The translations under genes and the position numbers were made by a program. From a virus, in IMG/VR virus record IMGVR_UViG_3300046779_002131, positions 1-64,000 of that record: 64,000 nucleotides of DNA. One strand, 5' to 3'. Shown piece after piece: positions 33,103-56,109 of this stretch (position 1 is the first letter of the stretch; the number at the start of each line of letters is the position of its first letter). Below the pieces are notes generated by a model. The model was not told the DNA's origin, made no database searches, and was given only the letters and a program-made list of their open reading frames with translations.

Positions 33103-33359
33103 AGAGTTTTGCCTACGGTTGTGAGAATGGTTTCAAGTAATTCGTGATCTTGCTGTGCCTTGCCAAACTCAGCCTTGTGTGCTATTTTGATTGCTTTCTT
33201 TAACACAGCTGGTTTGATTTCAAGTTCTTCGGCCACGGCTTTGACAGTGTCATTGAGTCCGCCGGTAAGTGTTTCAACTTCCATCATAACCTGCATGCCT
33301 TCGTTGATGAGTTGAGTGAGTTTGGCTTTTTGTTCGCTGCTGAAATTACGATCGTTCAT
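33099..33359 (-). CDS. small dsDNA-binding protein (T4 DsbA/GapR-like)
   Basis: LNDTVKAVAEELEIKPAVLKKAIKIAHK pattern; SD AGGAGG. Confidence 0.55.
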   Translation of the reverse strand: MNDRNFSSEQKAKLTQLINEGMQVMMEVETLTGGLNDTVKAVAEELEIKPAVLKKAIKIAHKAEFGKAQQDHELLETILTTVGKTL

Positions 33360-33377: not shown

Positions 33378-33406
33378 ATTGTAAACAAAATTTTGTAAAA
33401 AGTCAA
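33378..33406 (-). promoter_or_regulatory. sigma70-type promoter for the polymerase operon
   Basis: TTGACT-N17-TACAAT. Confidence 0.65.
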
Positions 33407-39011: not shown

Positions 39012-39451
39012 GCTCGATCGCCTTTAAGGAAACTGCGTAACATCCAACCATGTTTGCCATGTGCATCAATTCTTTCGGCAATAAAGTTAGCAATGCCCTG
39101 TTGGTTTTCATTTTCAGCAGCAGCAAAACAATTGTTAAGCAATTGCAGCATTTGATTGTTGTCGTTTAATAATTCTTCAATCATTAATCGACTACGTGGA
39201 ACTTTGGTTTGACCAGTGAGTTGGCTAAGTTCAACAAAACGTTCAAAACTTCCAGGAGCATACTCGCCCAAGGTACGAATATATTCAGCGGTTTTATCAA
39301 TTGTGTTATCATAGACTTCTTCGTATATTTCTCCAAAGAATTCATGTAATTGAGCAAAATCTGGGCCTTCAACATTCCAGTGGAAGTACTGTGCCTTTAT
39401 TACATAGGCATAAGCTGTGGCTAATAGGGTTTTTAAAGCTTCACTTAACAC
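39008..39451 (-). CDS. dps: Dps family ferritin-like DNA protection protein
   Basis: HWNVEGPDFAQLHEFF..IYE...DKTAEYIR...HGKHGWML. Confidence 0.9.
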   Translation of the reverse strand: MLSEALKTLLATAYAYVIKAQYFHWNVEGPDFAQLHEFFGEIYEEVYDNTIDKTAEYIRTLGEYAPGSFERFVELSQLTGQTKVPRSRLMIEELLNDNNQMLQLLNNCFAAAENENQQGIANFIAERIDAHGKHGWMLRSFLKGDRA

Positions 39452-41823: not shown

Positions 41824-42384
41824 TTAGTAAGGGCGGCCTTCGGCTTCGCTGCGACAGCCTTCGTGCCAGCTGTTGGAATTTCCCGGTGGGCATAAATTGG
41901 GATCCTTGATACCACGAGACTGTGCCCATTTGTCACCGGCCTGATGACCCGAACAATCCTGTGTGCAAGGATACTCGCGCCAAGTCAAGCCATTTTCATC
42001 TAGTTCTTCTTCCATTGGTAGAGCTGCGCTGGGTGCAGGTTTTTTTACAGCACCACCGGCCACGGGTCTGCTACCCCCGGTTGAAATACTAAAAGGACCA
42101 ATCGTGGTTTTTTTAGGCATTTCTCGACCAGTCCAACTTCCATCAGGTTTAATATTGGTTACTTGCACATTAGATGGAACCGAAGCTGCTGCTGCTCGTT
42201 GTGTTTGAATCTCTTGACCAATTGCAGCTTGTTTGTTGCTTAGATCATTAATAGCTTGTGAAATATCAGATGCTGCAATCTTGGCGCCTTGTTGTGTGGT
42301 CATTGCTCCGGCGTCTACAGCATCTTTCCAAGGCATTTCGGCTTCTTGGTAAGATTTTTTCTTAACAAATTCTCGTGCTCTCAT
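41824..42384 (-). CDS. hypothetical protein with CTS-like N-terminus and Cys-rich C-terminal module
   Basis: MRAREFVKK; LDE|NGLTWREYPCTQDCSGHQAG. Confidence 0.7.
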   Translation of the reverse strand: MRAREFVKKKSYQEAEMPWKDAVDAGAMTTQQGAKIAASDISQAINDLSNKQAAIGQEIQTQRAAAASVPSNVQVTNIKPDGSWTGREMPKKTTIGPFSISTGGSRPVAGGAVKKPAPSAALPMEEELDENGLTWREYPCTQDCSGHQAGDKWAQSRGIKDPNLCPPGNSNSWHEGCRSEAEGRPY

Positions 42385-43025
42385 GTTGTTTTATATACCG
42401 TTGAAAATACATTCTTGTAGTCTTTAAAATTCTCATGGCGATCTTGTAATCCACGCATATTGGGATTAATTTGTTTTGTTACAGCACGAGTATCATTAAA
42501 GTTTTGTACGTTGGGACGTACCCGTTGTTTCCAATACCATATGGCAATTTTTGCTGCTATGTCTGGCCTTGACGCCAGTTCTGGCTGACGTTCTAAAGGC
42601 ACGCCCAGTGCTTCTCCAGCACGACGATAGTTGTCTCGGCCTGTGATTTGTATAAAGCCACGCCCTTTGTAACGTTCGCCATCTCCGGGCTGTGTGTTGC
42701 CTAGTACTCTGGCCTTTTGTGGATCTACTCTAGGATCATATCGCAGAAAGTAATTACGATCGCCCATTTCTTGCATGTGTAAAAAACCTGCGGATTCGTG
42801 ATAGCATTGTGCTAGGAACTGTGCCAGTTCTGTGCCTCTAATACCAGCGGATCTAGCAGCACGATGTAATGCTTCTTCTGCCCCGGTATTGGAACTAAGC
42901 AGTGGAGGCCCAACTTTTTCGCCGGCCTGTGCTGCAGGAACACCTGCAGCGGCCATAGCGCCTGCTCCTAGTGCACCTAGGAATCCTCGACGATCTATTT
43001 CAGATATAAACTCATAGGATCTCAT
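42381..43025 (-). CDS. glycoside hydrolase family 19 (chitinase-like peptidoglycan hydrolase)
   Basis: AQFLAQCYHESAGF, LGNTQPGDGERYKGRGFIQITGRDNY and VTKQIN; N-terminal RRGFL twin-arginine-like signal. Confidence 0.9.
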   Translation of the reverse strand: MRSYEFISEIDRRGFLGALGAGAMAAAGVPAAQAGEKVGPPLLSSNTGAEEALHRAARSAGIRGTELAQFLAQCYHESAGFLHMQEMGDRNYFLRYDPRVDPQKARVLGNTQPGDGERYKGRGFIQITGRDNYRRAGEALGVPLERQPELASRPDIAAKIAIWYWKQRVRPNVQNFNDTRAVTKQINPNMRGLQDRHENFKDYKNVFSTVYKTT

Positions 43026-43438
43026 TTAATTCCTTCGGTGATAGGACCACCTTCTACCCAAGCATCACAAGTGCGCTTGGCAGCACATTTAAACTTCAAA
43101 AATTTACAATAGCCTAATGTGCCGGCATCTACAGTGTCGTGAGAGTCTGATCCTGGCTCTGAGCCAATTCCCAGTGCAATGCAGTCCTGAATTTTTTCCG
43201 ACATATCAAATGCAGCACAGTTGCCACAACGATTATGTTTTACTGACTCTATATCGTTGGTATTCCATTTGTCCGCTAGTTCTGCCCAGTATTCATAGTT
43301 TGGTTCGTTAGGATTGAGAGGACCATAGTGGTACTCGTCAATGGCCTTCTGGCGATTTTTAAGGTTTAGATCAATGTTTTGCGTAGCAGGTGGGCAATTA
43401 CGGCTTACTGCTTCTAATATGTTTATAAGATTTCTCAT
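43022..43438 (-). CDS. Cys-rich hypothetical protein (possible metal binding)
   Basis: CGNCAAF...GYC...C...CDAW; MRNLINILE N-terminus. Confidence 0.7.
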   Translation of the reverse strand: MRNLINILEAVSRNCPPATQNIDLNLKNRQKAIDEYHYGPLNPNEPNYEYWAELADKWNTNDIESVKHNRCGNCAAFDMSEKIQDCIALGIGSEPGSDSHDTVDAGTLGYCKFLKFKCAAKRTCDAWVEGGPITEGIK

Positions 43439-46400
43439 TTTTTCTTACCAGATTTCATGTTAGCGCACCAGTGTGCCATTCTTTGTCGCTCACCAGAACT
43501 ATTGCTGGCTATCTTTCTTAATTTACTTATGGACTGTTGGCAATTTACACCCACACGCTTGGCTAGGCCCTTGCGTCCTGGTTTCTTGCCGTCGGCAAAG
43601 TTTTCTTCAAGGTCTGCCTGCTCAACTTCGGCTACAATACTGGCGACTTCTAAAAATGCCGATTCGCTGAGTAAGGTCAATCTATCCATGTCATAGTAAC
43701 TACGATTATTGCTGTTATAGATTACAACATCAAGTCCTTGATCACGATAACTCTGCGCTAATACAGATACTTGTCCCAGTGTTCCAACAACTTGTTCCAT
43801 TACATTGTTGGGATTATCGCGGCCAATAATAGAGAAAGTGCCACGAAGTTGCCGACGAGAATTTACTATCTTTGACTCATCAATTTGTCCTAGAGTTCGT
43901 GGATCGTAGTGTGCTATGCTTTCCTCATCAAAAATTACAGTATTATAACCCTGCCGTTCATAATTCATTGCCACAGCAGCAGCATCTTCAAGTGTACCTG
44001 TGACTATTTCTAAAGTTGTGTCGGCATCGTCTCTGTCAATAATTTCGTATGTTCTACGTTGTGATTGTTGTGCGGCCGGTGAATAACCTGCCTGACTGCG
44101 TGATGCATCTGATTGGCTTGATAGTTCTGCTTGCGGTTGTGCATTATAAACTAATACTAATTGATCGTTAAACACATTAACTGGCTCACCTAATGCATCG
44201 GCCCAACGTTGTGCGGCTTCTCCTGCCATATCGTCATTGGAGTATGTGTCTGAAGCTATTTCGTCGTTAGATACAACACCAATTAAGGTATATTCTTGCT
44301 CTGCACGTGGTGTTGTTGCATTTGTTTCAGCAGCAGGTGTTCCAGTAATGAAGTAAGCACGATTAGTATTCAAATCAAAAATACGAATTTCTTCGCGTGG
44401 AACATCTCGGACAGGTATCAAACTATTTGCCCGCTGCTCGGCCTCCACCCAAGGCATAGGTCTACCAGGAAATAATATTTCACCATTGCGATTATCTACA
44501 ATCTGGAATATACTTGTATGGGGTGCTCTAAAAGGTCCACCACCGGTGCTTGGCTGCTGGGGTTCGGTGGGAGTTTCTGAAATAAATTCACCGGTATGGG
44601 TATATTCCTCGCCAGTACTATCATCCTGCAGGGTATACATCGACGCATCTGCGTCGTCTGTCTCACCGTTTTCTTCAAGCCACTCTGCAAGTTCTTCAAC
44701 GGCTTGCGCCAGAGTGCGATTGTCTATTTCACCAACAACTAATTCTCCATCTTGCAAGATTGAGAAGTCGGTTGTGTATTCATCTGAGTGAGAGAACTGC
44801 GGACGTCTTACTTCATCTACTCCGCCTGCATCGTTTAAACGCCAATATTGATGTCCACCGTCGTCATCATGAATTAAAATGTTTCTTCCATAAGATTGAT
44901 TGCTGATCTCTCTGGCACGAATTACTGCAGAGCTCAGAGTTGACTCACCCATGTCTTCTATTTCATCACCGCTAACTCCTGAAATAATATTAAAGTTACC
45001 TCTTACATCAGGAATATTAGAACTAGAAGTTGATTGAGTATTTGATGCATTCAACAATTGGCCATTACTATCGTACGATAGTCCAGAACTTTCATTGTAG
45101 AACACAAATTCATTGTGCGGAATACTTCTTGTATCTGCATCACGTAAAACATGAGCTCTTGCGTAGTCAAATGATCGTGTACCATTTGTGCGATAGACCA
45201 TACGATCCTGTCCATCTTCACGTCGGTAAACTATCCATTCACCATTGGCAGCACCTTGTACGGCGGTTGGTTGTGACGCTGATTGTTGTCCTCTACCTGC
45301 CCGACGAGCACGGTCTATATATGCTTGGTCAATATAATCATCTTCTTGTCCAATTCTAGAGAGAACCTGTCCAGAACTGGCATTAATGATTCTCAATCTA
45401 CTTGCGAACTCGGGGTTACCAGGGTAAATTGTAGTGGATCTGTCATATAATGTATCAGCGGCCACACGAGGTATCATTGGGTCTGTTATCACCGCAACAA
45501 CTGCACCGGTAGAATCCGCAGGTTGGTTAGTATCAACAATTATCCAAGGGCCGCTGTTACCAGCCGATGATTGCTGTCCACGTTGAGCCATAGTTTCCGC
45601 AGTAACCGGTGTCCCGTCAATGTAGTAAACGCCCCCATTGTCTAAGTCGGTGATGCGTATGACATCTTCGGGAATGTTTTGGTTGAAAGACAGATCACGA
45701 GCTAACATAGCTGTAGATTCCCAACTTCTAACTCTGACCGGTACTAATTGGTTACCATTTCTACCATCAACTATAACATAGCGAGAATTATCTGGTGGTC
45801 TGCCGGTAGATACCTGGGCAGGCCAATTAATTGGTACAACAGTATTTGAATCAAATTGTAAACGTAATGGAAGTCTTTGGCGCCATTGACGTTGAACATC
45901 AGGTGTGGCCTGGTTTAACATATCCGTTACAATTCTAGCAGCGTCTTCAGCAAAGTCAGCACTTATCATTAGTGTTGTGCTGCCACCGTTAACATCAATT
46001 AAGTTCATTGCCCGTCGTTCAGGCGCAGAGGATCTTTCTGGTTGTAGTTCAGCAGCACGTTGCTGTGCCTGTTGCTGGGCAGCCTGTCGTGCGCTGATCA
46101 ATTGGTCCTGCGCTTTTTTAACAATTTCACGTACTAAAGATTTAAAAATTGGATCGTCTTTGTTTAGTTGTTGTTTTGAACTTCTAATACCCACTGCAAT
46201 TTTTGTGCCGCTAAGGTATACGCCAAAGGAATCATTTAAATTATACTGCTGGTTCATGGTAGTTAAACCACGGACTGTTGTTGGAAAAACTGTGTAGCTA
46301 ACAAATCTAGAAGGGTCCGCTGCCTCAATTTTTTCTCTAGTTTCAGGGCGCCAGGTGCGGGCTGCAACCATTCGGTCTTTGGCCTCTTGACTGTTTCTTT

Positions 46401-48186
46401 GAACATTGGTTATGTCAATATCGTCTGTGGCGTATTGTTTACGAACTGCCATAGTAAGATCCACGAAACTGTATTCTTTATCTTCTAACAAATATAGATC
46501 TTGGGTGTAGACAGCGACACCCGATTCTCTTATTTTTTTAATCAGTTGTCGTGGATCATCAGCTTTTTCAGTCTTTTTAGGTTGTATAAAACGTGAGACT
46601 TTGTTAAGATATTCATCGCGATAGGCATCGGGGTCAGACGCAATGACCATGGAACGCACAAATCGTCCAACTACATTTTCTACATCCTCTGCTCGGTTCA
46701 AGTAATCGCCGCCGGCGTGCCTAAAACTTACGTACTTTGAATTTTCCGAGCTAACACTGGCCATGTGATTGCTACTGATATCTCGAACAATTTCTTTGAG
46801 TTTTTTCATAGGATCCGGAGTGTTTTCCCAATCGCGACCACTACCTCGGTTCTCTAATGATTTAATTACACTGTTGGCATAACTGTTGTTTTCTCGGCCA
46901 AACTGTTTTAGCACATGTTCATCGCCCACAAACGTTGCTAATTTAAGTACATCTAGACTTCGGGGAATACTGACATTGATATGTAAGCCGGTTTTGTTGT
47001 TGGCACTGGTATAAAAACCATTTTCTCTAGCAACTTGATAAAAGTTTTTTAGAACTCGAATAGCCTCAGGAGCAGGCAGTGGCGGGCCAACTATTTCGCA
47101 CGAACCATCATCGCCATTTGGTCTTAGGCTACCATCAGGTTCAATGTACCAGTCGGTTAGGTTTTTAGTGCCACCGTGGTAACTGTTAAAAATATGTACT
47201 GGACGATTGAATACTGGAAAAATTACATTTTTAACAAAGTCTGCGGTACGACGATACATGTTACTACTACTTCTATATCTATCTGGATCGTAATCTGGGT
47301 TATAGCCGCCAAGCACATTATTAACAGCCTTGGCTTTACCAGTGATAACCTTCCAAGGACCAGACATGAGACGGGCCATTTGCACAGAGCCGTATTTGAT
47401 TTTTACCCATTGAGCAAATTGGTCTCGACTATCAGCTGTGTCAAACATGTAAGCATGCCCTATTCGATCACGAACAGCGTCTAGTAATGCGTCCCAGAAA
47501 ATTCTTTCTGCATTCATGTGCGCTACTTCTGAGTTTTGGTGCTCAAATCCATGTTCGCGCCGAGCCTCATAGTAACGATCGCTGTAATGACGATACTTTT
47601 CTGAAATAACTGATGTAATTCTGCTATTCGCATCCGAAGGATTGCTTATAGTAAAGTTAGTAAAAGATTCGGCATTATCAAAATCAATATCGTTAGATTT
47701 TAGGTATTCTTTGACTTCTGCGGCTCGTTGTTCTTTAGTCTTTATCCACTCAGTCAGTTCTCCATCGTAATTACGCTGTACTAATCTTGTGTAGGCTTTG
47801 GCAATGGATTCATCAAACAAACTAGAATATGTTGCAAACACTGTATCTTTGCAGTATGAATCTAGAATTTTTTTAGTAGCAGGTTCAATACCAGGCACAG
47901 GTTCTTCTGATGCTATGAGTTGATCAAATGACGTTCTTACGTGTGTGACTCTTTCAAGTTTTTGCAACCAACCTTTGACAGTCATCGTGCCCCAGTTTAC
48001 TACAGGTTCTTGTTCGGCAACTTCTCGACCGCGATTTTCCCAGGCAACCACTCGCTCTTTAGGAACGCAAACTTCAAATTCAAAGCCCACTAGAACGCCT
48101 AGGTCGCCACCTTCCTTGACCGCCTGGCGGAAAACCGTGGGACTCATTCTTGCTTCGTACAGCGGATCAATTTCGTTAAATTTCAT
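43435..48186 (-). CDS. 1583-aa COOH-NH2 ligase (amidoligase_2-like) with about 10 C-terminal divergent repeats
   Basis: GFEFEV, WYIEPDGSL, CEIVGPPL, TGLHINVS and VSFRHAGG. Confidence 0.75.
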   Translation of the reverse strand: MKFNEIDPLYEARMSPTVFRQAVKEGGDLGVLVGFEFEVCVPKERVVAWENRGREVAEQEPVVNWGTMTVKGWLQKLERVTHVRTSFDQLIASEEPVPGIEPATKKILDSYCKDTVFATYSSLFDESIAKAYTRLVQRNYDGELTEWIKTKEQRAAEVKEYLKSNDIDFDNAESFTNFTISNPSDANSRITSVISEKYRHYSDRYYEARREHGFEHQNSEVAHMNAERIFWDALLDAVRDRIGHAYMFDTADSRDQFAQWVKIKYGSVQMARLMSGPWKVITGKAKAVNNVLGGYNPDYDPDRYRSSSNMYRRTADFVKNVIFPVFNRPVHIFNSYHGGTKNLTDWYIEPDGSLRPNGDDGSCEIVGPPLPAPEAIRVLKNFYQVARENGFYTSANNKTGLHINVSIPRSLDVLKLATFVGDEHVLKQFGRENNSYANSVIKSLENRGSGRDWENTPDPMKKLKEIVRDISSNHMASVSSENSKYVSFRHAGGDYLNRAEDVENVVGRFVRSMVIASDPDAYRDEYLNKVSRFIQPKKTEKADDPRQLIKKIRESGVAVYTQDLYLLEDKEYSFVDLTMAVRKQYATDDIDITNVQRNSQEAKDRMVAARTWRPETREKIEAADPSRFVSYTVFPTTVRGLTTMNQQYNLNDSFGVYLSGTKIAVGIRSSKQQLNKDDPIFKSLVREIVKKAQDQLISARQAAQQQAQQRAAELQPERSSAPERRAMNLIDVNGGSTTLMISADFAEDAARIVTDMLNQATPDVQRQWRQRLPLRLQFDSNTVVPINWPAQVSTGRPPDNSRYVIVDGRNGNQLVPVRVRSWESTAMLARDLSFNQNIPEDVIRITDLDNGGVYYIDGTPVTAETMAQRGQQSSAGNSGPWIIVDTNQPADSTGAVVAVITDPMIPRVAADTLYDRSTTIYPGNPEFASRLRIINASSGQVLSRIGQEDDYIDQAYIDRARRAGRGQQSASQPTAVQGAANGEWIVYRREDGQDRMVYRTNGTRSFDYARAHVLRDADTRSIPHNEFVFYNESSGLSYDSNGQLLNASNTQSTSSSNIPDVRGNFNIISGVSGDEIEDMGESTLSSAVIRAREISNQSYGRNILIHDDDGGHQYWRLNDAGGVDEVRRPQFSHSDEYTTDFSILQDGELVVGEIDNRTLAQAVEELAEWLEENGETDDADASMYTLQDDSTGEEYTHTGEFISETPTEPQQPSTGGGPFRAPHTSIFQIVDNRNGEILFPGRPMPWVEAEQRANSLIPVRDVPREEIRIFDLNTNRAYFITGTPAAETNATTPRAEQEYTLIGVVSNDEIASDTYSNDDMAGEAAQRWADALGEPVNVFNDQLVLVYNAQPQAELSSQSDASRSQAGYSPAAQQSQRRTYEIIDRDDADTTLEIVTGTLEDAAAVAMNYERQGYNTVIFDEESIAHYDPRTLGQIDESKIVNSRRQLRGTFSIIGRDNPNNVMEQVVGTLGQVSVLAQSYRDQGLDVVIYNSNNRSYYDMDRLTLLSESAFLEVASIVAEVEQADLEENFADGKKPGRKGLAKRVGVNCQQSISKLRKIASNSSGERQRMAHWCANMKSGKKK

Positions 48187-50723
48187 TTTCGTTTTTTTGG
48201 TTGTGCTCGTAGTCTTTTCATTATAGGCGCTGCAATGGCTTTAATGTAATTTATCGTCGCAGGATGACCGGGTGGCAAGCGCGAATCTGTAAAAGTATAA
48301 AACTTGTAGCTATTCTGCGCAGTTCTTCCTACATCGTTGGTGCTAGGAACAAGAAACTCAGGTGGCCGAATAAATGTAGTTCTTGTAAAGTTGGCCAAGG
48401 GCCATGCTTGAATTCTTTCGCGATTGCCTGGAGCACGAATTCTATCTAGCATGGTTTGTCTTGCTGCTTCACTATTGGCTTCAACAGACACCTGCTGCAT
48501 TTCTCTGGTTTTACCTGGCCTAATAGGACCAACACCAGCAGTGTCCTGGACAATAACAGGAATACCATTCATACGAATATCGTTAATAACAGCCATCAAT
48601 CTCCGTTGATCAGCTTTGAGACTGCTGCCTCCAGGTAGTTGAGGTTGTTCGGGAAATAGTTTAGTTAACTTTGTCAAGTATTCGTTTCTATATGCCGTGG
48701 GATCTGCGGCAATGACCATGGCCTGAATAAATCTACCCACAGTGTTGGTGACACCTTGGGGGTCTTTGAGATAAGCTCCTCCGGCATGTCTAAAGCTAAC
48801 ATATTTTCCGTTATAGTTGATACTAGCAGTGTGATTTCCTGAAATATTCTTTGCTATGTCAACAAGTTTTGCTAGGTCTCGAGGTTTAGCAGCCACTTTG
48901 CCGCTGCCTTGAGTTCGTATATCTCGCATAACACTTCGAGCGTAACCTGATTGTTGTCGACCATAATGTTTTAACACATATTGATCGCCCAGCAGCACAG
49001 CTAATTTCAACACATCTATGTTCTTGGGTATACTGACATTGATATGCAAGCCGGTGCTAGAATTTGTATATAATTTTAGATTTTCGGCAATACTAAAAAA
49101 CTTATTCAACACCGTCATGGCTTCGGCGGCAGGATATGGTGGACTCACAATCTCGGCTGTGGCGTCATCGGGCGCACTGGCATCTAGGCTTCCATCAGGT
49201 TCTACGTACCAATCGGTTAAATTTTTCACTCGCTGATGATAGTCATCGAATACAACTACATTTTTTTGATATGTGGCTTCAAGTTGTGCCTTTAAGATTT
49301 TGGCAGCTTTCCGATATTCTGGATCCCAATCTTCATCTTCGTCATCGCCCCGTTCGTAGTAATCAAGCTCAAGATAATCATAAGCAGCTTGAGGATTGTC
49401 AAAGGTAAAATAGTCTAAGAAATTGTTCTCAACGTCGTACGACGTTACACCCAATGCCCAGGCCAGAACTTCAACTAACCGATTTGGTTGTTGACCTAAC
49501 TTGCGTAAGTATAGTCCTTGATTTGCTGTATAACCACGAGATGCATAGAACACTTTTTGTCCAAACTCTCTTGCAAACTTGTACTGTTTGCCCAGCCTTG
49601 ACATACGACGGTAACTTGCATTTTGTTCAAGTTCGTCCTTGACTGTACGCACATGCTGAGTGCGCAATCTTTGCGGTATTGCGTCAAACGCAGCAATGAG
49701 GTCAGTCAGTTGCGCCTCCATCATTGCTTGGCGCATGGTTTTTACATTGGGCCAATTGATATTGGAATTTTTAAACTTAAACACATCAAGAAATTTGCCA
49801 AATTCCTGATCTTCAATATCAAAACGGTCTATGTTCGGGTCGTGGTCATGTATCAGTTCTATAACTCGAGCCCTGGTAAGTTCTGGCTGTGGTTGTGGTG
49901 TATTTGCGATGGGTTGGTTCTGAATGGTTTCTTCGGGAATACACACTTCAAATTCGTATCCCACTAACACACCCTCAGTTTGCCCTTGAGCCACTGCTTG
50001 TCGAAATGCCGTGGGATTCATGGCAACTTCATCAACTTCAGTGCCCGGGACCGAAGTACCATACACAATAGAGTTGGGGTTAATGTTTAAATTTTGAGCC
50101 AATTGTTTGATCACTAGATCAACTTTGTTAGCCGGAACTTGTGATTTTATTAAGCGTCGAATAGGATCACCCTGACGATTTTTACCACTGACATAGACAT
50201 CTACAGGTTCGTCACCAAAGATAATACGTCCTTCCTGGACAGTAGTTGCTAGATCAAACAGCGGACCGCGCACATATCCCTGCGTTCCTTGTGCATTCAG
50301 TCCTTGTTGTAGATGCTTAATTATTTCCGGGGTAAGGTCGCGATTACGTAGTCCACCACGTGGAAACAAATGTACTTCTATGGGATTGTTGCCTTCGGCT
50401 GCAGCCGCAGCATACATTCTATGGCGACCATCATGTCCAATTACCGAGGCAGGCTCGGAGAAATCTCCTGAGAACCAGGCTTCGGGAATACGTAAATCAA
50501 GAAACGGAGCGCCGATACCAGGATCGTCAAGGTGTTGACCAATGTACTTAATAGTCGCACGATCGTCAACGGTTTTGCGACCAATAGGTAGTGCTAGTTT
50601 TAAAAATGTCAGGGGTTTCATCAGCACACGCAGGCCAACATAGTCGACATTTTGATTGTTGGGCGTTGCACCAAGGCCGGCTTGATTGTTGATTCGTAAT
50701 TCGTTTAAGTCCCAGGCTCGCAT
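48183..50723 (-). CDS. 846-aa ParB/Srx-like N-terminal domain plus COOH-NH2 ligase (amidoligase_2-like)
   Basis: IGHDGRHR; GYEFEV, WYVEPDGSL, AEIVSPP, TNSSTGLHINVS and VSFRHAGG. Confidence 0.75.
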   Translation of the reverse strand: MRAWDLNELRINNQAGLGATPNNQNVDYVGLRVLMKPLTFLKLALPIGRKTVDDRATIKYIGQHLDDPGIGAPFLDLRIPEAWFSGDFSEPASVIGHDGRHRMYAAAAAEGNNPIEVHLFPRGGLRNRDLTPEIIKHLQQGLNAQGTQGYVRGPLFDLATTVQEGRIIFGDEPVDVYVSGKNRQGDPIRRLIKSQVPANKVDLVIKQLAQNLNINPNSIVYGTSVPGTEVDEVAMNPTAFRQAVAQGQTEGVLVGYEFEVCIPEETIQNQPIANTPQPQPELTRARVIELIHDHDPNIDRFDIEDQEFGKFLDVFKFKNSNINWPNVKTMRQAMMEAQLTDLIAAFDAIPQRLRTQHVRTVKDELEQNASYRRMSRLGKQYKFAREFGQKVFYASRGYTANQGLYLRKLGQQPNRLVEVLAWALGVTSYDVENNFLDYFTFDNPQAAYDYLELDYYERGDDEDEDWDPEYRKAAKILKAQLEATYQKNVVVFDDYHQRVKNLTDWYVEPDGSLDASAPDDATAEIVSPPYPAAEAMTVLNKFFSIAENLKLYTNSSTGLHINVSIPKNIDVLKLAVLLGDQYVLKHYGRQQSGYARSVMRDIRTQGSGKVAAKPRDLAKLVDIAKNISGNHTASINYNGKYVSFRHAGGAYLKDPQGVTNTVGRFIQAMVIAADPTAYRNEYLTKLTKLFPEQPQLPGGSSLKADQRRLMAVINDIRMNGIPVIVQDTAGVGPIRPGKTREMQQVSVEANSEAARQTMLDRIRAPGNRERIQAWPLANFTRTTFIRPPEFLVPSTNDVGRTAQNSYKFYTFTDSRLPPGHPATINYIKAIAAPIMKRLRAQPKKRK

Positions 50724-50724
50724 A

Positions 50725-51201
50725 TTAGTCTAGATCTTCAGGTGCTTCGTCAGGGCCAATTGCATCCAAGGCACGTTTTAGTTGTGTCAAAGGCAAATTA
50801 GCATTGTCATACCCACGCACAATGCGTTGTAGATAACTCTGTGTGGGCACACGACCTTGTAGTCGTTCTCGTGTTTCCGGAGTCATGGTGTAGACAAAGG
50901 CTTCGTAGCGTTGTGCATTACACACCACAGGTACTGCTTTGCGATCATACAAGTAAGGATAGCCTTCGGTTTGATCTAGTTGTGATAAAAACTCTCGAGA
51001 CACTGACCATAACACGCCGTCCACTGCACCGCGCTCGGGAAATACATTGGCATAACCACAGAATTCAAAATTAAAATTAGGTAGCTTTGCGCCGCCAATG
51101 AATTCAGCTGCGTCCATAATTTCAGGATCCGTGAGCATGCCGTAGGCAAAATAATAAATTGGTAATGCGCCGGCTTCGGTTAGTATGTCATGGATTTTCA
51201 T
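50725..51201 (-). CDS. gamma-glutamylcyclotransferase (AIG2/GGCT-like)
   Basis: YYFAYGML, VDGVLW, LDQTEGYPYLY, AFVY and YLQRIVRGY. Confidence 0.85.
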   Translation of the reverse strand: MKIHDILTEAGALPIYYFAYGMLTDPEIMDAAEFIGGAKLPNFNFEFCGYANVFPERGAVDGVLWSVSREFLSQLDQTEGYPYLYDRKAVPVVCNAQRYEAFVYTMTPETRERLQGRVPTQSYLQRIVRGYDNANLPLTQLKRALDAIGPDEAPEDLD

Positions 51202-51240
51202 TTTTAGATTCTCTTGTTTATATATCCAATATTATTTTGG

Positions 51241-54200
51241 CTATCTTGCTGGTACCACCATAAACTCGCCACTGCCTAGTAAACCATTTTGTCTCAACCA
51301 GTTAGCAGCATACTGATTAGCTTCGCCTTGGTTGCTGCGATGTACAAAACTATACACTTCTCTATCGTTTTGATCCAACACTAACCAACGTGTGTTACCT
51401 GGCGGCAAGCTTTCTGTTCCTTGAGCTTGATTTCTCCAGCCCGGCTGCGGTATTTCTTCAGCTTCAATAGATTCAACATTGTTGCCATTGCGTATTAGTA
51501 TTGAATGAACTCGTTCCATAGCAGCATTGGCATTTCTTGCAGTAATGTTAACGCTATTCAACGTAGTATGTGTGCCATCGTTTACAGTATAAGTTACTCT
51601 AAACTGTGGATTATTTTCTTCACCGGGCTCTGTGGGCACAGTGTGCCTTGGACGCATTAGAGGTCGCAGATAGTATGGATCGTCAAATCCGGTATCTAAA
51701 GCCCATCTTCTCCCATATACTTCTGCATCTCTTATGGCATTGCCTACACCTGAGAATTGATGTACTACTTCGTCAGTAGTACGCGACACAATTTCCCAGG
51801 TACCCGAGAACTCTTGATCAGCCGATGCTGCACGTTGTCTTGCTAGTTCTGCAGTTGATCCAGGAATACCACGACCTTCGATTCTACGTACATTATATCT
51901 ACTTCGATCGTCACGATCGCGCCCGGATAACCAATCATTGAATTTACGTCTTGCTTCTTCATCAGTGTTGGCAATAAATCTAAATACCGGTATCTGGTTG
52001 TCTAAATTTATGATTTCATAGTTAGCATCGGTACTCTGTTCACCACCTACTGCACCACCTGGCCGCATTACAACGCCATACGGCGATTCAATACTGTCAA
52101 TGGTATATTCATCAATTTGATCTTGACTATATCCTCGACTACGTAGTGTACGCCACAATGCCGCAGCAGCTTGTGAAAAATCGTTGCCTACATCAGGTGT
52201 TTGGAAACGCACGTTGTAGATACTGGGATATCTAGCATCTTTTAATCTGGCTATGTATTCAACACTGCCTCCAGGCACAGGCATTTCGGGTCTTTGCTGT
52301 GCTACACCCTGAATTTTTCGTGCGAGATCTGCTTTGCGAGTTTTAATATCTTTAGGTACACCGTCAACTTCACGATAGTCAATATATAACCAATCCTTTT
52401 GGTCAAAGTTGTTAATGATATAGTTAGGCATGTCATAGATGTTGGCATCAACCTGTCCAAGCACTTCGTCGGGGCGACGCTCATCAAATATTTCCCAGGT
52501 ACGCACTGAGGTGTCTTGAGGATCTGTGGTATGTAGAACTTTAGAAGCCCACTCGTTTTTTAATTGTTCGCCGGTTATACCACCAGCACTGTAGGAAGCA
52601 AACATTTTCATCATGGCACTGTCGCCTTCGGGTGCCAATAGTTTGTAAAGTTTTTTACCATACTCTTGACGTTCGGCACTGGGATCGCCGGCAATTTGCA
52701 TAGCACGAGCTAGACGTAAAAATGTTGTGTTTAATTCTTCGTTAGATTTGTCTAGGTAGTCTCCGCCGGGTCCACGGAACTCTATGTAACTTGGCTTGCC
52801 CTTGTCGTCGCGATGTACATGCGCTGACTGATATTTGTTTCTACCACCTTCTCCATGTAAGAAATTTCTAGTGGCAAGTTCTATTAGATTCTTGCGCATT
52901 AGTTCAAACGCATCGGGTATCTTTTTCAAGCCGGCTTTTTTAGCACTGGCAACATAGTCTGCAAGTTTTGTCATTGAGCTTGAACAAAAGTGTATGGCTG
53001 TACGTCCAAATTGTTCTAGTACGTGCTGGTCACCCATGAATAACAATAATTTAACATAGTCAACGTCGGCTCCGCGATGAGGTATTGATATGTTCATGTG
53101 CAGACCTGTGCTGCTGTTGGTATAGCCTCCAATGTCTCGAGCCCATTCCATAACTTTGTCCATGTCCGACAAGGTCTTGCTCAAGGTCTGTTCGGGACTG
53201 ACAACTTCAAATCCAGCATCAATGTCATCATCAGGGTGAATACTGGAATCGCCTTCAATAATCCAAAGTCCGGGCTCACGTCGGATACTGTGATATCCAG
53301 TGCTCATTTTAACACGCATGTTGACGGCAGCAGCAAGACTAGTTCTAATTTCGTCGGGGTTGCGACTGCCGGCGTTGCCACCCGTTTCGGTCATGTAAGG
53401 CCAACTGAGGTCAAAAGAGTTTCCAATATCACTCATGTAGCCATATTCACTACGTAAAAAGTCTCGTTCGGAATTGTTGTCCATGAATTCGGCACGGTAC
53501 TCATCATAGAATTCTTCCCAAGGTGAGCTAGATTTTTTTTCGTACTGATCCTGTATTTCATCCTCAAATGCAATTCTTGCCTCAGTCTCAGCACGTTGGT
53601 ATTCGGCATACAAGGGATGGTCTACATTTTCTAATCTGCCGGCTTCAAGAGCATCACTGGCTTCGGCGCCCTCAATATCTGCGTTGTAGAGTTCATCACC
53701 TATTAGATCTTCACGACGATTAGGCCATTCATTTTCCCACATCCAGGTTGAAAATTCGTTAAAAAGATTGTCGTCAATTTTATTGTCGATCCACTCATAG
53801 TATTCACTAGTTAAATCACTTCTCAAACGTTCTTGTTGACTTCGCGTTAGGCCATAGCCCCACTCATCATCGCTGAAGAAATCAACTACATCGTCAATAT
53901 CGCCAGGGCGCTGATCAGCATCGTAGTCAGGCTCTAGTTCACTTTCACCTTCTTCGTCATAGGTGTCTCGAAAACATAATTCGGCTTCAAATCCAGCATG
54001 TATGTCTTGGGCTTCAGGACTACGTGCCCATGCTTCAAGAGCTCGGGGAGTCATGGCAACTTCAAACAGCTCCTCACTTTCACGCAACAACGGCGGTGTA
54101 CCATCTCTGGCAATCTTCCATCCCAGCTTCTTGGCGTTCTTTTGCATGGAGTCAGGACGTATATCCACAGTGAGAGCCATTGAAAAACGTGGATCGTCTT

Positions 54201-56109
54201 TTTCGGCTTCACTGGGAATGTAACCTGATGATTCATCAAGATCTTGTGTGGGCATACCAAGTCGTTTGAGAGACTTGATATACTTGTGCTCTAAATCTTC
54301 ATCACCAAAACTTATTACTGTAGATGGTGGTCCTTTGCCAAAAGAACTTTTATCAAAATCGTCAAGGTCAGATATTCCTTGCCCGAGTTTATACCAATCA
54401 TAAACGTCTGATACTGCAACTTTTACTGTGCCTTTGGGAAACTGTGGTGGCGACTCAGGTCCCGGAGGATCATTACCATCGTCATACTCCCATTCTTCTT
54501 CTTGTTCTTCAAGATTTTTTTCACGGAAATATTCTGGATATTGTTCGGCAAACTGTCGCATTATGATACCAGCTTCGGCGTTCGCCTGATTTTCTTCTTG
54601 AGATCCAGTTTTACCTGAATGCATGTCTAATTCACCGCGTTGATCCTGCGCAGCATGTGTAAGTTCATGTGCCAGAGTCCTTAATACATCAACAATGTGA
54701 CGATTGGCTGTGACCAATATCAAAGACTTTGTTTCAGGATCATAACGACCAAAACTGTTGTTCTTTGCGCTCCATTCGGCATTTTTGACAAGACGAATTT
54801 GAGGTAGACGTTGTAGCCCAAGATGTTGTGCTGCTGCCTTGGCAAACTTGCGAACTACGGTTTTGACATCAGCTGATTCATCTTCGCTGGTAAACATTGT
54901 TGTGGAAGGTGATACTCCGTCCCAGGTATGTCCTACATCTTCGCTGGTAAACATTGTTGTGGAAGCGGATACTCCGTCCCAGGTATGTCCAGCATCTTCT
55001 TTGGTTTTTTCTCGGGGATATCCACGACGAATGTCTATACTGTAGGTGCCTTCGAGTCCTTGACGGTCCAAGGTGTCAGATACAAATTTTTCTGCATCAC
55101 GACTTGATTGAAAACGATCGCCAAGATCAAACTTGCGTGTCTCACCGTTGATAGTAACATAGGCAACAGTGATGGGTTTGGCTTCGGTCTTTGGTGGTTC
55201 GGCTGCGGCCGGTGTTGTGGCCACTGCTCCGGCAAGAGCAGCAGCACGAGATGCTTTGTATAGATTGTCAGCAAAGCCTTCTTCAACTTGCTCGCCACCT
55301 TCGGTCCCAGCAGGATGATCTTGCCCAGCATAGGCAAACCCCGGAAACCAATAACCTCCGCTGTATCCATAACTGCGTCGAGTTTTTTTCTTGGATTGTT
55401 TTTTCTCGTCAAGACTCAGTTCACGAGCATGTGCATCGCTGCGAGCATTGGCCAGTCGTTCAATATAACCTTGGCTACGCAGCATTTTGAATGCAAGATT
55501 TTCTGCACTGAATTCGCCATGCTCGTCAAGTCCAGCCTGACGCATGACTCGAATTTTTTTCATTAATTCTTCAGCACCTTGTCCACTCTTAATTGAATTT
55601 TCAATACGCTGCTTGAGATCCTCGTATTTGTTACGCACAACAGCATCGTTGATGTCGGCACGTTTGCGACGTGGAACTTGTATCCATTTATTGCGTTTTA
55701 GTGAATATTCGCCTTGTGAAACAACATCTTCGTCAGCGGGCTGTACATACAATTCAACATCAGCATCACGCACAGTGATATTGTGCAGATCATTGTATTG
55801 ATATTTTTTTGCATTGAATAATTCACGAAACACTGGATCATAGAGTTCGGGAATATCTACAATTAAATGTAGATCAATATCAGAATGTGGAGTATAAGTG
55901 TAGCTGGCGTTGCTACCACTGACTGTGATATCTTTTACCTGTAAATCAGGTACGCCAAGAAATTCTTGAAAATCCGCGGCAATTTTCAGTAGAGCTTCGC
56001 GAACTTCGGGTTTGATTCTTTCACGCCCGTCCCACAGTCGGGGATTGAGCCGACTGTGGAAACGAATCGCATCCTTTAGATCGTAGCTGTCCAGTTCATT
56101 TATGTTCAT
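51241..56109 (-). CDS. 1622-aa polyvalent protein: Pol-beta-type nucleotidyltransferase, zincin metallopeptidase, COOH-NH2 ligase and C-terminal repeats
   Basis: SGSNASY..SDIDLH...VELYVQ; LAHELTHAAQ...E; AGFEAEL, IEGDSSI, FEVVSP, TNSSTGLHMNIS and IEFRGPGG. Confidence 0.75.
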   Translation of the reverse strand: MNINELDSYDLKDAIRFHSRLNPRLWDGRERIKPEVREALLKIAADFQEFLGVPDLQVKDITVSGSNASYTYTPHSDIDLHLIVDIPELYDPVFRELFNAKKYQYNDLHNITVRDADVELYVQPADEDVVSQGEYSLKRNKWIQVPRRKRADINDAVVRNKYEDLKQRIENSIKSGQGAEELMKKIRVMRQAGLDEHGEFSAENLAFKMLRSQGYIERLANARSDAHARELSLDEKKQSKKKTRRSYGYSGGYWFPGFAYAGQDHPAGTEGGEQVEEGFADNLYKASRAAALAGAVATTPAAAEPPKTEAKPITVAYVTINGETRKFDLGDRFQSSRDAEKFVSDTLDRQGLEGTYSIDIRRGYPREKTKEDAGHTWDGVSASTTMFTSEDVGHTWDGVSPSTTMFTSEDESADVKTVVRKFAKAAAQHLGLQRLPQIRLVKNAEWSAKNNSFGRYDPETKSLILVTANRHIVDVLRTLAHELTHAAQDQRGELDMHSGKTGSQEENQANAEAGIIMRQFAEQYPEYFREKNLEEQEEEWEYDDGNDPPGPESPPQFPKGTVKVAVSDVYDWYKLGQGISDLDDFDKSSFGKGPPSTVISFGDEDLEHKYIKSLKRLGMPTQDLDESSGYIPSEAEKDDPRFSMALTVDIRPDSMQKNAKKLGWKIARDGTPPLLRESEELFEVAMTPRALEAWARSPEAQDIHAGFEAELCFRDTYDEEGESELEPDYDADQRPGDIDDVVDFFSDDEWGYGLTRSQQERLRSDLTSEYYEWIDNKIDDNLFNEFSTWMWENEWPNRREDLIGDELYNADIEGAEASDALEAGRLENVDHPLYAEYQRAETEARIAFEDEIQDQYEKKSSSPWEEFYDEYRAEFMDNNSERDFLRSEYGYMSDIGNSFDLSWPYMTETGGNAGSRNPDEIRTSLAAAVNMRVKMSTGYHSIRREPGLWIIEGDSSIHPDDDIDAGFEVVSPEQTLSKTLSDMDKVMEWARDIGGYTNSSTGLHMNISIPHRGADVDYVKLLLFMGDQHVLEQFGRTAIHFCSSSMTKLADYVASAKKAGLKKIPDAFELMRKNLIELATRNFLHGEGGRNKYQSAHVHRDDKGKPSYIEFRGPGGDYLDKSNEELNTTFLRLARAMQIAGDPSAERQEYGKKLYKLLAPEGDSAMMKMFASYSAGGITGEQLKNEWASKVLHTTDPQDTSVRTWEIFDERRPDEVLGQVDANIYDMPNYIINNFDQKDWLYIDYREVDGVPKDIKTRKADLARKIQGVAQQRPEMPVPGGSVEYIARLKDARYPSIYNVRFQTPDVGNDFSQAAAALWRTLRSRGYSQDQIDEYTIDSIESPYGVVMRPGGAVGGEQSTDANYEIINLDNQIPVFRFIANTDEEARRKFNDWLSGRDRDDRSRYNVRRIEGRGIPGSTAELARQRAASADQEFSGTWEIVSRTTDEVVHQFSGVGNAIRDAEVYGRRWALDTGFDDPYYLRPLMRPRHTVPTEPGEENNPQFRVTYTVNDGTHTTLNSVNITARNANAAMERVHSILIRNGNNVESIEAEEIPQPGWRNQAQGTESLPPGNTRWLVLDQNDREVYSFVHRSNQGEANQYAANWLRQNGLLGSGEFMVVPAR
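54879..54999. repeat. 57-bp tandem repeat (about 2.1 copies), 19-aa unit EDxGHTWDGVSxSTTMFTS
   Basis: Read directly. Confidence 0.9.

Follow-up and report, generated by a model that had tools for sequence, protein, structure and literature searches.

Gene content of the locus

The 64,000-nt stretch of DNA analysed here (the window) belongs to record IMGVR_UViG_3300046779_002131, which is 97.5 kb long and 28% complete, and its source is an uncultured T4-related jumbo phage of ~350 kb. Four co-directional genes encoding proteins of 1622, 158, 846 and 1583 amino acids (P0001 to P0004) were identified in the ORF listing, closely packed or overlapping and all on the minus strand, exactly where a first-pass annotation had placed them (Table 1). 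The sequence matches of the ligases (blastp, Pfam) and of the gamma-glutamyl cyclotransferase (GGCT) were far beyond chance. The cluster is surrounded by polymerase, ClpA-like and nucleotide-modification genes, that is by replication and metabolism functions and not by a structural module, and no head genes were found in the 97.5-kb record at its 28% completeness. A GH19 lysozyme-like gene with a Tat signal lies two genes downstream of the cluster.

Table 1. Features of the cluster, with positions numbered from the first nucleotide of the window
Feature	Position	Strand	Basis
P0001 (1622 aa), of polyvalent type, with NTase, metallopeptidase, amidoligase of clade A and repeats	51241..56109	(-)	ORF, domain searches
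Pol-beta-type nucleotidyltransferase (NTase)-like domain, P0001 aa 9-233	55411..56085	(-)	phrog_36119, E 7.7e-43
Zincin-like metallopeptidase (HELTH motif), P0001 aa 403-530	54520..54903	(-)	HExxH in translation
gp21-type cleavage-like site LFE, P0001 aa 681-683, abutting the ligase domain	54061..54069	(-)	Alignment
Amidoligase domain, clade A, P0001 aa 684-1165	52615..54060	(-)	blastp E 1e-26 and 1e-27 to P0003 and P0004
~6 copies of a ~55-aa beta-beta-alpha-beta-beta module, P0001 aa 1201-1622	51244..52509	(-)	Alignment
P0002, 158-aa GGACT/AIG2-type gamma-glutamyl cyclotransferase, leader MKIHDILTE|AG	50725..51201	(-)	PF06094, phrog_2520
P0003 (846 aa), with leader, ParB/Srx-like domain, amidoligase of clade B and C-terminal domain	48183..50723	(-)	ORF, domain searches
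Leader MRAWDLNE and ParB_N-like domain (GHDGRHR), P0003 aa 1-225 (lead only)	50049..50723	(-)	Atlas feature score 0.92 to ParB_N clusters
Amidoligase domain, clade B, P0003 aa 233-700, after VDE|	48624..50027	(-)	PF12224, 29.6 bits; GS-superfamily fold
C-terminal alpha/beta domain of ligase unit, P0003 aa 701-846	48186..48623	(-)	Conserved counterpart in P0004, aa 546-632
P0004 (1583 aa), with leader, amidoligase of clade B, C-terminal domain, 10 repeats and basic tail	43435..48186	(-)	ORF, searches
Capsid-targeting-like leader MKFNEIDPLYE, P0004 aa 1-11, L-Y-E end	48154..48186	(-)	Translation, family alignment
Amidoligase domain, clade B, P0004 aa 12-545	46552..48153	(-)	41% identity to P0003, E 6e-69; PF12224, 23 bits
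~10 copies of the ~55-aa repeat module, P0004 aa 722-1504	43675..46023	(-)	Alignment, model
Basic tail module (NFADGKKPGRKGLAKR...), P0004 aa 1529-1583, after L-E-E|	43438..43602	(-)	Module identity

P0001 is 90% identical to P0006, and its architecture is shared with at least 12 representative clusters at 40-47% identity. Its NTase-like region scored slightly below cut-off against PF01909 (NTP_transf_2, E 7.9e-4), a domain that 7 of 28 large relatives contain, and the region bearing the HELTH motif matched PF20573 (DUF6782, E 5e-6) and Peptidase_M78 (E 7e-3), both below their cut-offs. The ~55-aa repeat was modelled on P0004 residues 1376-1432, a folded unit with a pLDDT of 96.3, and the copies in P0001 are rows of an alignment. 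For residues 1-225 of P0003 there was no Pfam match; the DGRHR motif within them aligns with the ParB_N stretch of P0163, and at locus L008 a ParB_N-like domain of this type is a separate leader-tagged gene upstream of the ligase. The C-terminal domain of P0003 was confident in the AF2 model, with weak structural matches (Z ~5). The basic tail of P0004 is 57-88% identical to the same module in other giant proteins, which carry NUDIX, deaminase, polyA-polymerase/HD, GNAT, GGCT+ParB or amidoligase domains, and at L027 the module stands between leader and GGCT.

Such proteins resemble the polyvalent proteins of phages and conjugative elements, for example P1 DdrB/DarB and N4 vRNAP, which are predicted to enter with the DNA (Iyer et al. 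2017, PMC5512222) and which are likewise giant phage proteins with Pol-beta NTase, zincin metallopeptidase, ParB-like and other enzyme domains. Several unrelated catalytic domains were found together in P0001 (NTase-like, HExxH peptidase and ligase), among them two of the types that, with ParB, are hallmarks of this class (metallopeptidase and Pol-beta NTase); the Pfam scores of these two lie just under cut-off, while P0003 combines the ParB-like lead with a ligase. The terms 'glutamine synthetase', 'cyclotransferase' and 'amidoligase' were not found by term search of PMC5512222, and loading here would proceed through a T4-type capsid-targeting sequence (CTS) and head protease, not by autoproteolysis.

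The amidoligase domain

The three large proteins were found to have one paralogous domain in common (blastp between the three, E 1e-26 to 6e-69), extending over approximately the residues given in Table 1. All of the motifs previously listed for them (GxExE, DxS, E(I/V)V(S/G)P, TGLHxNxS and FR) were confirmed by a three-way alignment, in which G[FY]E[FA]E, E[PG]D[GS]S, E[IV]V[SG]P, TGLH[IM]N[VI]S and FR occur in every protein. Against a cut-off of 22 bits for PF12224 (Amidoligase_2), P0003 scored above threshold, and P0004 reached 19.5 bits by hmmscan and passed in a six-frame search. There was no direct Pfam ligase match for P0001, which was assigned via its paralogy and via PF12224 matches in 25 of the 28 large relatives (best E 1.6e-20). 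By these profile matches the ligase clade belongs to Pfam Amidoligase_2, a family of GS (glutamine synthetase)-like COOH-NH2 ligases reportedly described by Iyer, Abhiman, Burroughs and Aravind in 2009. Residues of metal/ATP-site type (GxExE, ExDxS, ExVxP, GLHxNxS, FR and R) were invariant in 60 homologues and in all three paralogues, those of P0001 being E708, E710, E952, D954, S956, E968, H1004, R1112 and R1132; their correspondence to the GS site is by motif likeness and not by residue-level superposition.

The GS-fold assignment made earlier was also upheld by structure prediction. The AF2 model of P0003 residues 226-846 had a pLDDT of 84.4, and VIA-align matched it to human GS with a Z of 11.9 (185 aa, rmsd 3.4), followed by GCL (8.0), YbdK (7.9), Dop (7.9) and PafA (7.8); the best 16 matches were all GS, GCL, YbdK, Dop or PafA (Z from 11.9 to 6.6). 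Foldseek matches were weak, with GS at E 0.07. Judged from alignment and model together, the large proteins almost certainly have the ligase fold with an intact site. They share with PafA/Dop and YbdK/GshA a GS-type fold and a predicted ATP-dependent carboxylate-amine ligase site; the likeness to PafA and Dop is at fold level only, with neither found at E up to 10 in profile searches of PDB sequences and with structural scores below that of GS.

Two old ligase clades were resolved in the tree, A in P0001 (domain start of the type EVxM[ST]PxAL) and B in P0003 and P0004, and the ligases are further diversified into several paralogues with hypervariable helical inserts. The family comprises ~2,500 clusters at 50% identity, with only viral sequence among those found, and literature searches returned no assayed member of the clade. 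P0003 and P0004 match no PHROG family and therefore fall outside the annotated phage amidoligase family. Relative to Amidoligase_2 members and to the podovirus cassette considered below, the ligases here form a separate clade, carry an extra C-terminal domain and, behind the first strand, a helical insert of 200-250 aa, and are set in a giant polyvalent frame with a CTS-like leader and a conserved [LIV]-x-E site.

Leader, putative cut site and probable virion delivery

The leaders of P0002, P0003 and P0004 (Table 1) are similar to the T4 CTS, MKTYQEFIAE (PMC8442874), while P0001 starts with MNINELDSYD, which is not the canonical leader. Across the ligase family the N-termini follow M[RK]xx[ED][FL]...[LIV]xE|[VA]xMNP, and a leader was present on 10 of the record's 115 ORFs and, in the neighbourhoods of related ligases, on 164 of 921. 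Each ligase domain had been proposed to start immediately after a putative processing site with a shared new N-terminus, and the alignment placed LFE|VAMTP (P0001), VDE|VAMNP (P0003) and LYE|ARMSP (P0004) immediately before it. The pattern proved to be family-wide: in the domain-start motif [LIV]-x-E|[VA]-x-M-x-P, Glu occupies P1 at 92 of 93 N-terminal starts and at 60 of 64 internal ones. Synonymous codons vary at the leader and cut site, so selection acts on the peptide. In the AF2 model the P1 Glu lies in a low-confidence tail ahead of the first helix; the conserved [LIV]-x-E could also be a mere part of the domain's N-terminal cap.

No gp21-type prohead protease was found in the 97.5-kb, 28%-complete record, and Peptidase_S77 (T4 gp21) was present in all four larger related genomes. 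In Atu_ph07, where the gp21-type protease is gp204, the protein gp196 (500 aa, 57.93 kDa) matched the ligase family profile at E 6.7e-51 and adjoins T4-like portal and gp21 genes. It is among the published virion proteins of Atu_ph07, where 14 unique peptides cover 30.2% of it (PMC6102473 Table S5). The leader was strongly associated with virion proteins in that phage, which account for 25 of 30 leader ORFs compared to 115 of 821 others (odds ratio 31, P = 2.6e-16). Some contamination is possible, since the virions were PEG-purified and the virion table includes a topoisomerase subunit (PMC6102473).

Most of the cluster proteins carry a T4-type head-loading tag, and the ligases and GGCT are therefore probably injected with the DNA. 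The earlier claim of virion delivery has good but indirect support from the leader, its predictive value and gp196, and was weakened by P0001 and by the position of the genes outside a structural module; overall, packaging and processing of the cluster proteins are considered likely. In a rival reading the proteins are not packaged, the leader serving in translation, localisation or as a degron and the ligases being ordinary early or middle enzymes in the infected cell. The genes do adjoin replication and metabolism genes, P0001 lacks the leader, and a search of the 64,000-nt window for the T4 late promoter motif found none, but the closeness of the leader to the T4 CTS and the Atu_ph07 data make this reading very unlikely. 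T4 internal-protein genes likewise lie outside structural modules.

T4 IPI-III and Alt, which are targeted to the capsid, processed by gp21 and injected, are comparable in having a ~10-residue N-terminal leader near MKTYQEFIAE with an [IL]-x-E end and a gp21-type protease, found here in the related genomes. In function the closest parallel is Alt, an injected enzyme with host proteins as its substrates. The predicted chemistry here is amide ligation and gamma-glutamyl cleavage, in place of ADP-ribosylation or nuclease inhibition; in addition, the cluster proteins are multidomain and of much greater size, and many more genes bear the tag.

The cyclotransferase and the possible roles of the cluster

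The small gene had been described as a GGCT with a CTS-like leader, in agreement with our searches: P0002 matched PF06094 (GGACT) at E 1.5e-13 with 51.8 bits (cut-off 22.8) and phrog_2520 at E 2.6e-18. Its catalytic motifs YxxYGM and LDxxEGY (Y17, Y20, G21, M22 and L75-D76-x-x-E79-G80-Y81) were invariant in 13 sequences. GGCTs of the 'YGMLTD' type all have the leader, while paralogues of the 'YGMNTN' type, from genomes of the same kind, lack it and are never close to a ligase.

Co-occurrence of amidoligase and GGCT, and with it a writer/eraser system, had also been put forward. Of 39 dereplicated locus groups, 7 have GGCT next to a ligase and 5 have the two fused, with fusions in both orders, and GGCT was the commonest leader-tagged ligase neighbour (14 of 49 loci). 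The link is, however, facultative, holding at about one third of loci counted from either direction, and at ~25 of ~37 loci with a leader-type GGCT no ligase lies within 10 kb. Other GGCT fusions involve GH19 (L088, L094), ParB_N (P0163) and a basic tail (L027), so fusion in a cargo system need not mean one pathway and the ligase-GGCT fusions may reflect cassette shuffling among cargo genes. A true ligase-GGCT pairing is accordingly left as doubtful, and for comparative genomics the case is a caution that gene fusion in cargo polyproteins is no proof of a shared pathway.

These counts and fusions also suit a reading in which ligases and GGCT are independent cargo enzymes, both packaged and injected and acting on different host molecules, with adjacency arising from cargo-gene islands and shuffling; the GGCT could, for example, degrade host glutathione or gamma-glutamyl-amines, with some other target for the ligases. 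In Atu_ph07 a ligase is packaged and GGCT is absent, and polyvalent proteins join functionally separate domains (PMC5512222). We regard this reading as rather unlikely: the chemistries are complementary, making versus breaking gamma-glutamyl amides, two amidoligases and a GGCT recur in unrelated podoviruses and in Clostridium prophages (PMC5498523, PMC11318856), and the neighbour frequency and two-way fusions given above count against it.

The best explanation overall, with a probability of about one half, is that these are capsid-cargo amidoligases and a GGCT of a T4-related jumbo phage. The leader (M-[RK]-x-x-[ED]-[FIL]...[ILV]-x-E) would take P0002, P0003 and P0004 into the prohead core. 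A gp21-type head protease would cleave after [LIV]-x-E, stripping the leader and releasing the ligase units so that each begins with the conserved [VA]-x-M-x-P, and the processed ligase and GGCT pieces would exit with the DNA. Once inside a new host, the ligases would use ATP to join a carboxylate, which would most likely be the glutamate gamma-carboxyl as in characterised members of the GS-type fold, to an amine acceptor. The co-packaged GGACT-type enzyme would act on gamma-glutamyl-amine bonds, either removing ligase-written links or working on host gamma-glutamyl compounds. Gamma-glutamyl chemistry of the ligases is plausible at somewhat less than even odds, and it is unlikely that the full scheme applies, in which injected ligases tag host protein lysines or polyamines in the first minutes by ATP-driven gamma-glutamylation and the GGACT-type enzyme removes the tag as 5-oxoproline.

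In butirosin biosynthesis (BtrJ/BtrG), a gamma-glutamyl group is put on an amine by a ligase and later taken off, as 5-oxoproline, by an enzyme of GGCT fold; with GGACT this is the clearest characterised write-then-erase precedent, although BtrJ is an ATP-grasp enzyme of a biosynthetic cluster, with a small molecule bound to a carrier as its substrate, and is not phage cargo. If the capsid-cargo explanation is true, a very large ligase family would be standard head cargo of T4-related jumbo phages, delivered with the DNA, and amide ligation, possibly reversible gamma-glutamylation, would join ADP-ribosylation, RNA polymerisation and nuclease inhibition among phage-delivered chemistries. A virion-delivered writer/eraser pair, if real, would serve a modification of proteins or polyamines that is not known from conflicts between phages and their hosts. 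The system is tractable, as Atu_ph07 is cultured, with gp196 already in its virion proteome, and the ligase units and GGCT are small enough for expression and assay.

Cleavage by T4 gp21 leaves peptides with a C-terminal Glu, and PafA, a structural neighbour here along with Dop, joins the gamma-carboxyl of a C-terminal Glu to lysine. The enzymes might act on the phage's own components, linking Glu-ended scaffold peptides to head proteins in the prohead or amidating a carboxylated base (7-carboxy-7-deazaguanine), but only a very slight chance is given to this. The GS score is clearly above that of PafA, no Pup-like small ORF ending in G[GA][QE] was found in the 97.5-kb record, and a DNA-modification enzyme would need no capsid-targeting leader. 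In contrast to pupylation, the eraser here would be of GGCT fold and not a Dop-like paralogue. To our knowledge, the GGCT fold cannot cleave a gamma-glutamyl group whose alpha-amine sits in a peptide bond. Two further suggestions of the first-pass annotation gained no support: nothing was found in favour of Glu-ended head-protease peptides as ligase donors, and only 6 of 49 related loci have a ClpA homologue, proposed as the tag reader, close to a ligase.

A phiEco32/LUZ24/PSA-HP1-type podovirus cassette also contains two amidoligases and a GGCT, for which peptidoglycan or cell-surface peptide modification is proposed (PMC5498523). The domain family and fold are the same, two different amidoligases again accompany a GGCT in a phage, and in both cases function is predicted by computation only; GGCT is found at only ~1/3 of loci here. 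The present cluster may be a reduced cassette of this kind, remodelling cell-wall peptides, for example as a superinfection block or lysis aid. Relatives in which ligase or GGCT is fused to GH19, SLT, LysM or SPOR domains point in this direction, as does the Tat-signal GH19 gene downstream, but the reading is considered distinctly improbable. GATase_4 and ATP-grasp_4 were not found above cut-off with the two profiles in the record and four related genomes (G000-G004, two of the relatives ~97% complete), nor among neighbours, P0003 and P0004 lie outside any PHROG family, the ligases have no export signal, and the peptidoglycan role of the podovirus cassette is itself only a proposal. At L094, a Tat signal is located between GGCT and GH19.

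Gene cluster and genomic setting

Four consecutive genes, encoding three large amidoligase proteins (P0001, P0003 and P0004) and a small gamma-glutamylcyclotransferase (GGCT, P0002), were found in the ORF listing with exactly the coordinates and lengths reported in the first-pass annotation. The junctions between them are overlapping or very short, and nearly all genes of the window lie on the minus strand. The window covers the first 64 kb of its source, an IMG/VR virus record of 97.5 kb in total, which was rated 28% complete by CheckV and thus represents part of a jumbo phage genome of approximately 350 kb. No megablast match to the 12.7-kb region was found among 50,697 phage records, while tblastn with P0003 gave matches in only two cultured phages, RsoM2USA and Agrobacterium phage Atu_ph07.

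Features of the cluster and its surroundings
Feature	Coordinates	Strand	Description
P0001	51241-56109	-	1622 aa
Linker of P0001, NTase-like to peptidase domain	54871-54990	-	GHTWDGVS[AP]STTMFTSED, two tandem 19-aa copies
P0002	50725-51201	-	158 aa
P0003	48183-50723	-	846 aa
P0004	43435-48186	-	1583 aa
Repeat module	43675-46023 (P0004) and 51244-52509 (P0001)	-	approximately 16 copies, 55-residue beta-beta-alpha-beta-beta
Basic tail module (NFADGKKPGRKGLAKR...)	43438-43602	-	55 aa, end of P0004
GH19 lysozyme-like gene	42381-43025	-	leader MRSYEFISE
Radical-SAM protein	39938-41788	-	616 aa
phrog_3636 'DNA binding protein'	39008-39451	-	147 aa
Radical-SAM protein	33403-34431	-	342 aa
86-aa gene	33099-33359	-	86 aa

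The genes of the two radical-SAM proteins and the cargo genes form part of one co-directional block. Among 49 related loci, 27 have a homologue of the 86-aa gene, and 20 one of the phrog_3636 gene, no more than 10 kb from an amidoligase; a GGCT near an amidoligase is rarer (14). The T4 late promoter box TATAAATA does not occur in the whole 64-kb window (2.8 occurrences expected by chance), even though T4-type head genes are present in the lineage; the late promoters of this phage must be of another kind.

The amidoligase domain

One domain is common to P0001, P0003 and P0004 (pairwise blastp E 1e-26 to 6e-69), and a three-way alignment contained all of the ligase motifs first reported as well as the junctions LFE|VAMTP, VDE|VAMNP and LYE|ARMSP. 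Pfam family PF12224 (Amidoligase_2) takes in P0003 and, marginally, P0004, with P0001 being too divergent for a direct match; it was matched by 25 of 28 large relatives (best E 1.6e-20). A full HMMER scan with the ligase gave 2,557 representative clusters at E <1e-3, 1,176 of them at <1e-30. P0003 and P0004 belong to no PHROGs family, and nothing usable was found in Pfam for the C-terminal domain of the ligase unit or for the repeat regions.

The structure of P0003 aa 226-846 was predicted from an alignment with 59 homologues found in the HMMER scan, each 600-720 aa long (pLDDT 84.4), and compared with 48,161 PDB representatives using VIA-align. The best 16 matches all belong to one superfamily, led by human glutamine synthetase (GS; Z 11.9, 185 residues, rmsd 3.4), with other GS types and gamma-glutamylmethylamide synthetase at Z 9.4-10.5, plant GCL at 8.0, YbdK and Dop at 7.9, PafA at 7.8 and GshA at 6.1-6.9. 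Foldseek against the PDB returned no more than weak GS rows (E 0.07). The residues expected at such a site, namely a pair of Glu in the first strand, ExDxS, ExVxP, GLHxNxS, FR and one more Arg, are invariant across 60 sequences and retained in all three proteins. Because the model matches the GS superfamily, in a comparison that included PafA and GshA, and these residues are kept, the proposed GS-type ligase fold stands. Against PDB sequences, ligase profile A1 gave no match, and the JmjC demethylase matches of profile A2 (E 0.05-0.4) were dismissed as spurious.

Three features distinguish the present clade from the classical Amidoligase family: the first strand is followed by a helical insertion of 200-250 residues, more variable than any other part; an alpha/beta domain is conserved at the C-terminus; and the N-terminus bears a leader/[LIV]-x-E signal. 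A tree of the ligase core separated two old clades, A with P0001 and B with P0003 and P0004, and at least two ligase genes per locus were present in 18 of 39 dereplicated locus groups. The clade was absent from a pattern scan, limited to its patterns, of 185,579 prokaryote genomes.

Amidoligases are known from other phages. Podoviruses of the phiEco32, LUZ24 and PSA-HP1 types carry a conserved cassette of two amidoligases, a GGCT, a class-II amidotransferase and an ATP-grasp enzyme, for which cell-wall peptide modification has been proposed without experiment (PMC5498523), and amidoligase pairs with a GGCT occur in Clostridium prophages (PMC11318856). Unlike the podovirus cassette, the cluster described here is missing the amidotransferase and ATP-grasp partners, and the P0003 and P0004 ligases are without a PHROG family. 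No paper on capsid-targeted amidoligases was found in the literature.

Leader, putative cut site and virion proteins

P0001, P0003 and P0004 are most likely polyvalent proteins that are packaged in the head, released by the head protease and injected, carrying predicted working GS-fold amide ligases; the GGACT-type enzyme P0002 is most likely packaged with them. Overall, the observations of the first-pass annotation were confirmed, and its interpretation as a virion-delivered writer/eraser system was partly supported.

Stand-alone members of the family begin with M-[RK]-x-x-[ED]-[FL], followed by 3-15 residues, [LIV]-x-E and then [VA]-x-M-N-P, which is the beginning of the first helix of the ligase domain. 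In the full non-redundant set of domain starts, Glu occupies P1 at 92/93 N-terminal and 60/64 internal starts, and P3 is Leu, Val or Ile at 91/93 and 58/64; the P1 Glu sits in the low-confidence tail of the ligase model. The T4 capsid-targeting sequence, which is removed by the head protease, is MKTYQEFIAE (PMC8442874; PMC9026906), and the consensus here, M-R-A-x-E-F-[ILV]-x-E, is shorter by one residue. Synonymous codon variation was seen at the conserved leader positions (AGA/AAA/CGA..., GAA/GAG, TTT/TTC), which therefore indicates that the peptide, rather than the RNA, is under selection. The leader is present on 10 of the 115 ORFs of the record, including P0002, P0003 and P0004, and on 164/921 ORFs around related ligases; its chance frequency is estimated at well under 1% of ORFs. 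Peptidase_S77, the family of the T4 head protease gp21, is encoded in all four larger related genomes, two of which are 97-98% complete (338-354 kb).

The ligase homologue of Atu_ph07 (AUZ94978.1, gp196; 500 aa, 57.93 kDa) matched the family profile from its leader through to its core (E 6.7e-51), has the N-terminus MRWQDISSKKLTE|LKMN and is encoded next to the T4-like portal and gp21 genes. It is listed among the virion proteins of this phage (57.94 kDa, 14 unique peptides, 30.2% coverage; Attai et al. 2018, Table S5; PMC6102473). The 140 entries of that table, obtained from PEG-purified virions and including a topoisomerase subunit, were assigned by mass and position to ORFs of the whole genome (one small ORF received two matches), and with the same leader pattern as above, 25 of 30 leader ORFs were virion proteins, the count for the remaining ORFs being 115 of 821 (odds ratio 31, Fisher P =2.6e-16). 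The PEG purification, the topoisomerase subunit and the double match are caveats, but this association is the strongest available support for virion delivery, which is favoured by the presence of gp196 in virions and the enrichment of the leader there, while the lack of a leader on P0001 counts against it. Proteomics of RsoM2USA was restricted to the ten strongest bands and is thus uninformative.

A second cargo family with the same tag was observed in Atu_ph07 (MF403008.1, approximately 41.8-50.6 kb, gp54-gp63), where the placed genes begin M[RK]W[EHQ]QL[TNI]E and all are listed virion proteins; gp63 begins MRLFQLLE, and gp60 was left out as it was matched differently in two assignments.

Two further parts of the first-pass proposal fared less well. 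Glutamate-ended peptides as donors found no support, with no Pup-like small ORF in the record, and ClpA as a reader of the tags was set aside, since a ClpA homologue lies near a ligase in 6/49 loci and nothing else links the two.

The cyclotransferase and the polyvalent frame

By its sequence P0002 is a GGACT/AIG2-type enzyme, in which the YxxYGM and LDxxEGY motifs are invariant. A GGCT lies within 10 kb of a ligase in 13 of the 39 dereplicated locus groups, is the next gene in seven and is fused to the ligase in five (C-terminal in four, N-terminal in one), all of the fusions involving clade-B ligases; the GGCT is therefore not unlinked in relatives. GGCTs of the 'YGMLTD' type always carry a leader (MK[IM]x[DE][IV]IxE|AG), and those of the 'YGMNTN' type are without one and lie elsewhere in genomes of the same kind, never near a ligase. 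The reverse count weakens the pairing: among approximately 37 leader-type GGCT loci, a ligase is fused in only three, adjacent in six and within 10 kb in three, and no GGCT is encoded by Atu_ph07, which does package a ligase. Other fusion partners of the GGCT are GH19 lysozyme-like domains, ParB_N and the basic tail module. As cargo genes cluster and shuffle as cassettes, adjacency and fusion are weaker evidence of a common pathway here. The pairing has chemical appeal, and other phages show it as well, but it is not proven here.

P0001 also contains an NTase-like domain of the Pol-beta type (phrog_36119, E 7.7e-43) together with a metallopeptidase carrying the HExxH motif, and P0003 a candidate ParB/Srx-like domain, which is a lead only; in one related locus (L008) the latter is a separate leader-tagged gene directly upstream of a ligase. 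The frame of the three proteins shares its domain repertoire with the polyvalent proteins of Iyer et al. 2017, whose hallmarks include MPTase, Pol-beta NTase and ParB (PMC5512222); a term search of that paper found no 'glutamine synthetase', 'cyclotransferase' or 'amidoligase'.

Repeat arrays account for more than half of P0004 and for the final quarter of P0001. The module was modelled with high confidence (AF2 pLDDT 96.3), belongs to no Pfam family and had no significant match in PDB or BFVD; the best rows were T4 Dmd and AcrIF9 (TM 0.46-0.51, E above 1), weak look-alikes that are both small phage inhibitors. No usable match to P0004 aa 1220-1510 was obtained in an Atlas search. The basic tail module recurs with 57-88% identity in giant proteins with NUDIX, deaminase, polyA-polymerase/HD, GNAT, SLT/LysM, GGCT+ParB or amidoligase domains. 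It is always preceded by an [L]-x-E site, and in L027, another related locus, it also lies between leader and GGCT.

In the GH19 lysozyme-like gene, a twin-arginine-like signal (SRRGFLGALGAGAMAAAG) comes immediately after the leader. Among relatives, a GGCT-GH19 fusion was observed at L088:10001-11155, and one such fusion, a 647-aa protein (L094:9986-11926), has a Tat signal between both parts, in the order leader, GGCT, DUF6934, Pfam TAT_signal and GH19. A Tat signal exposed only upon removal of the leader would route an injected lysozyme to the periplasm.
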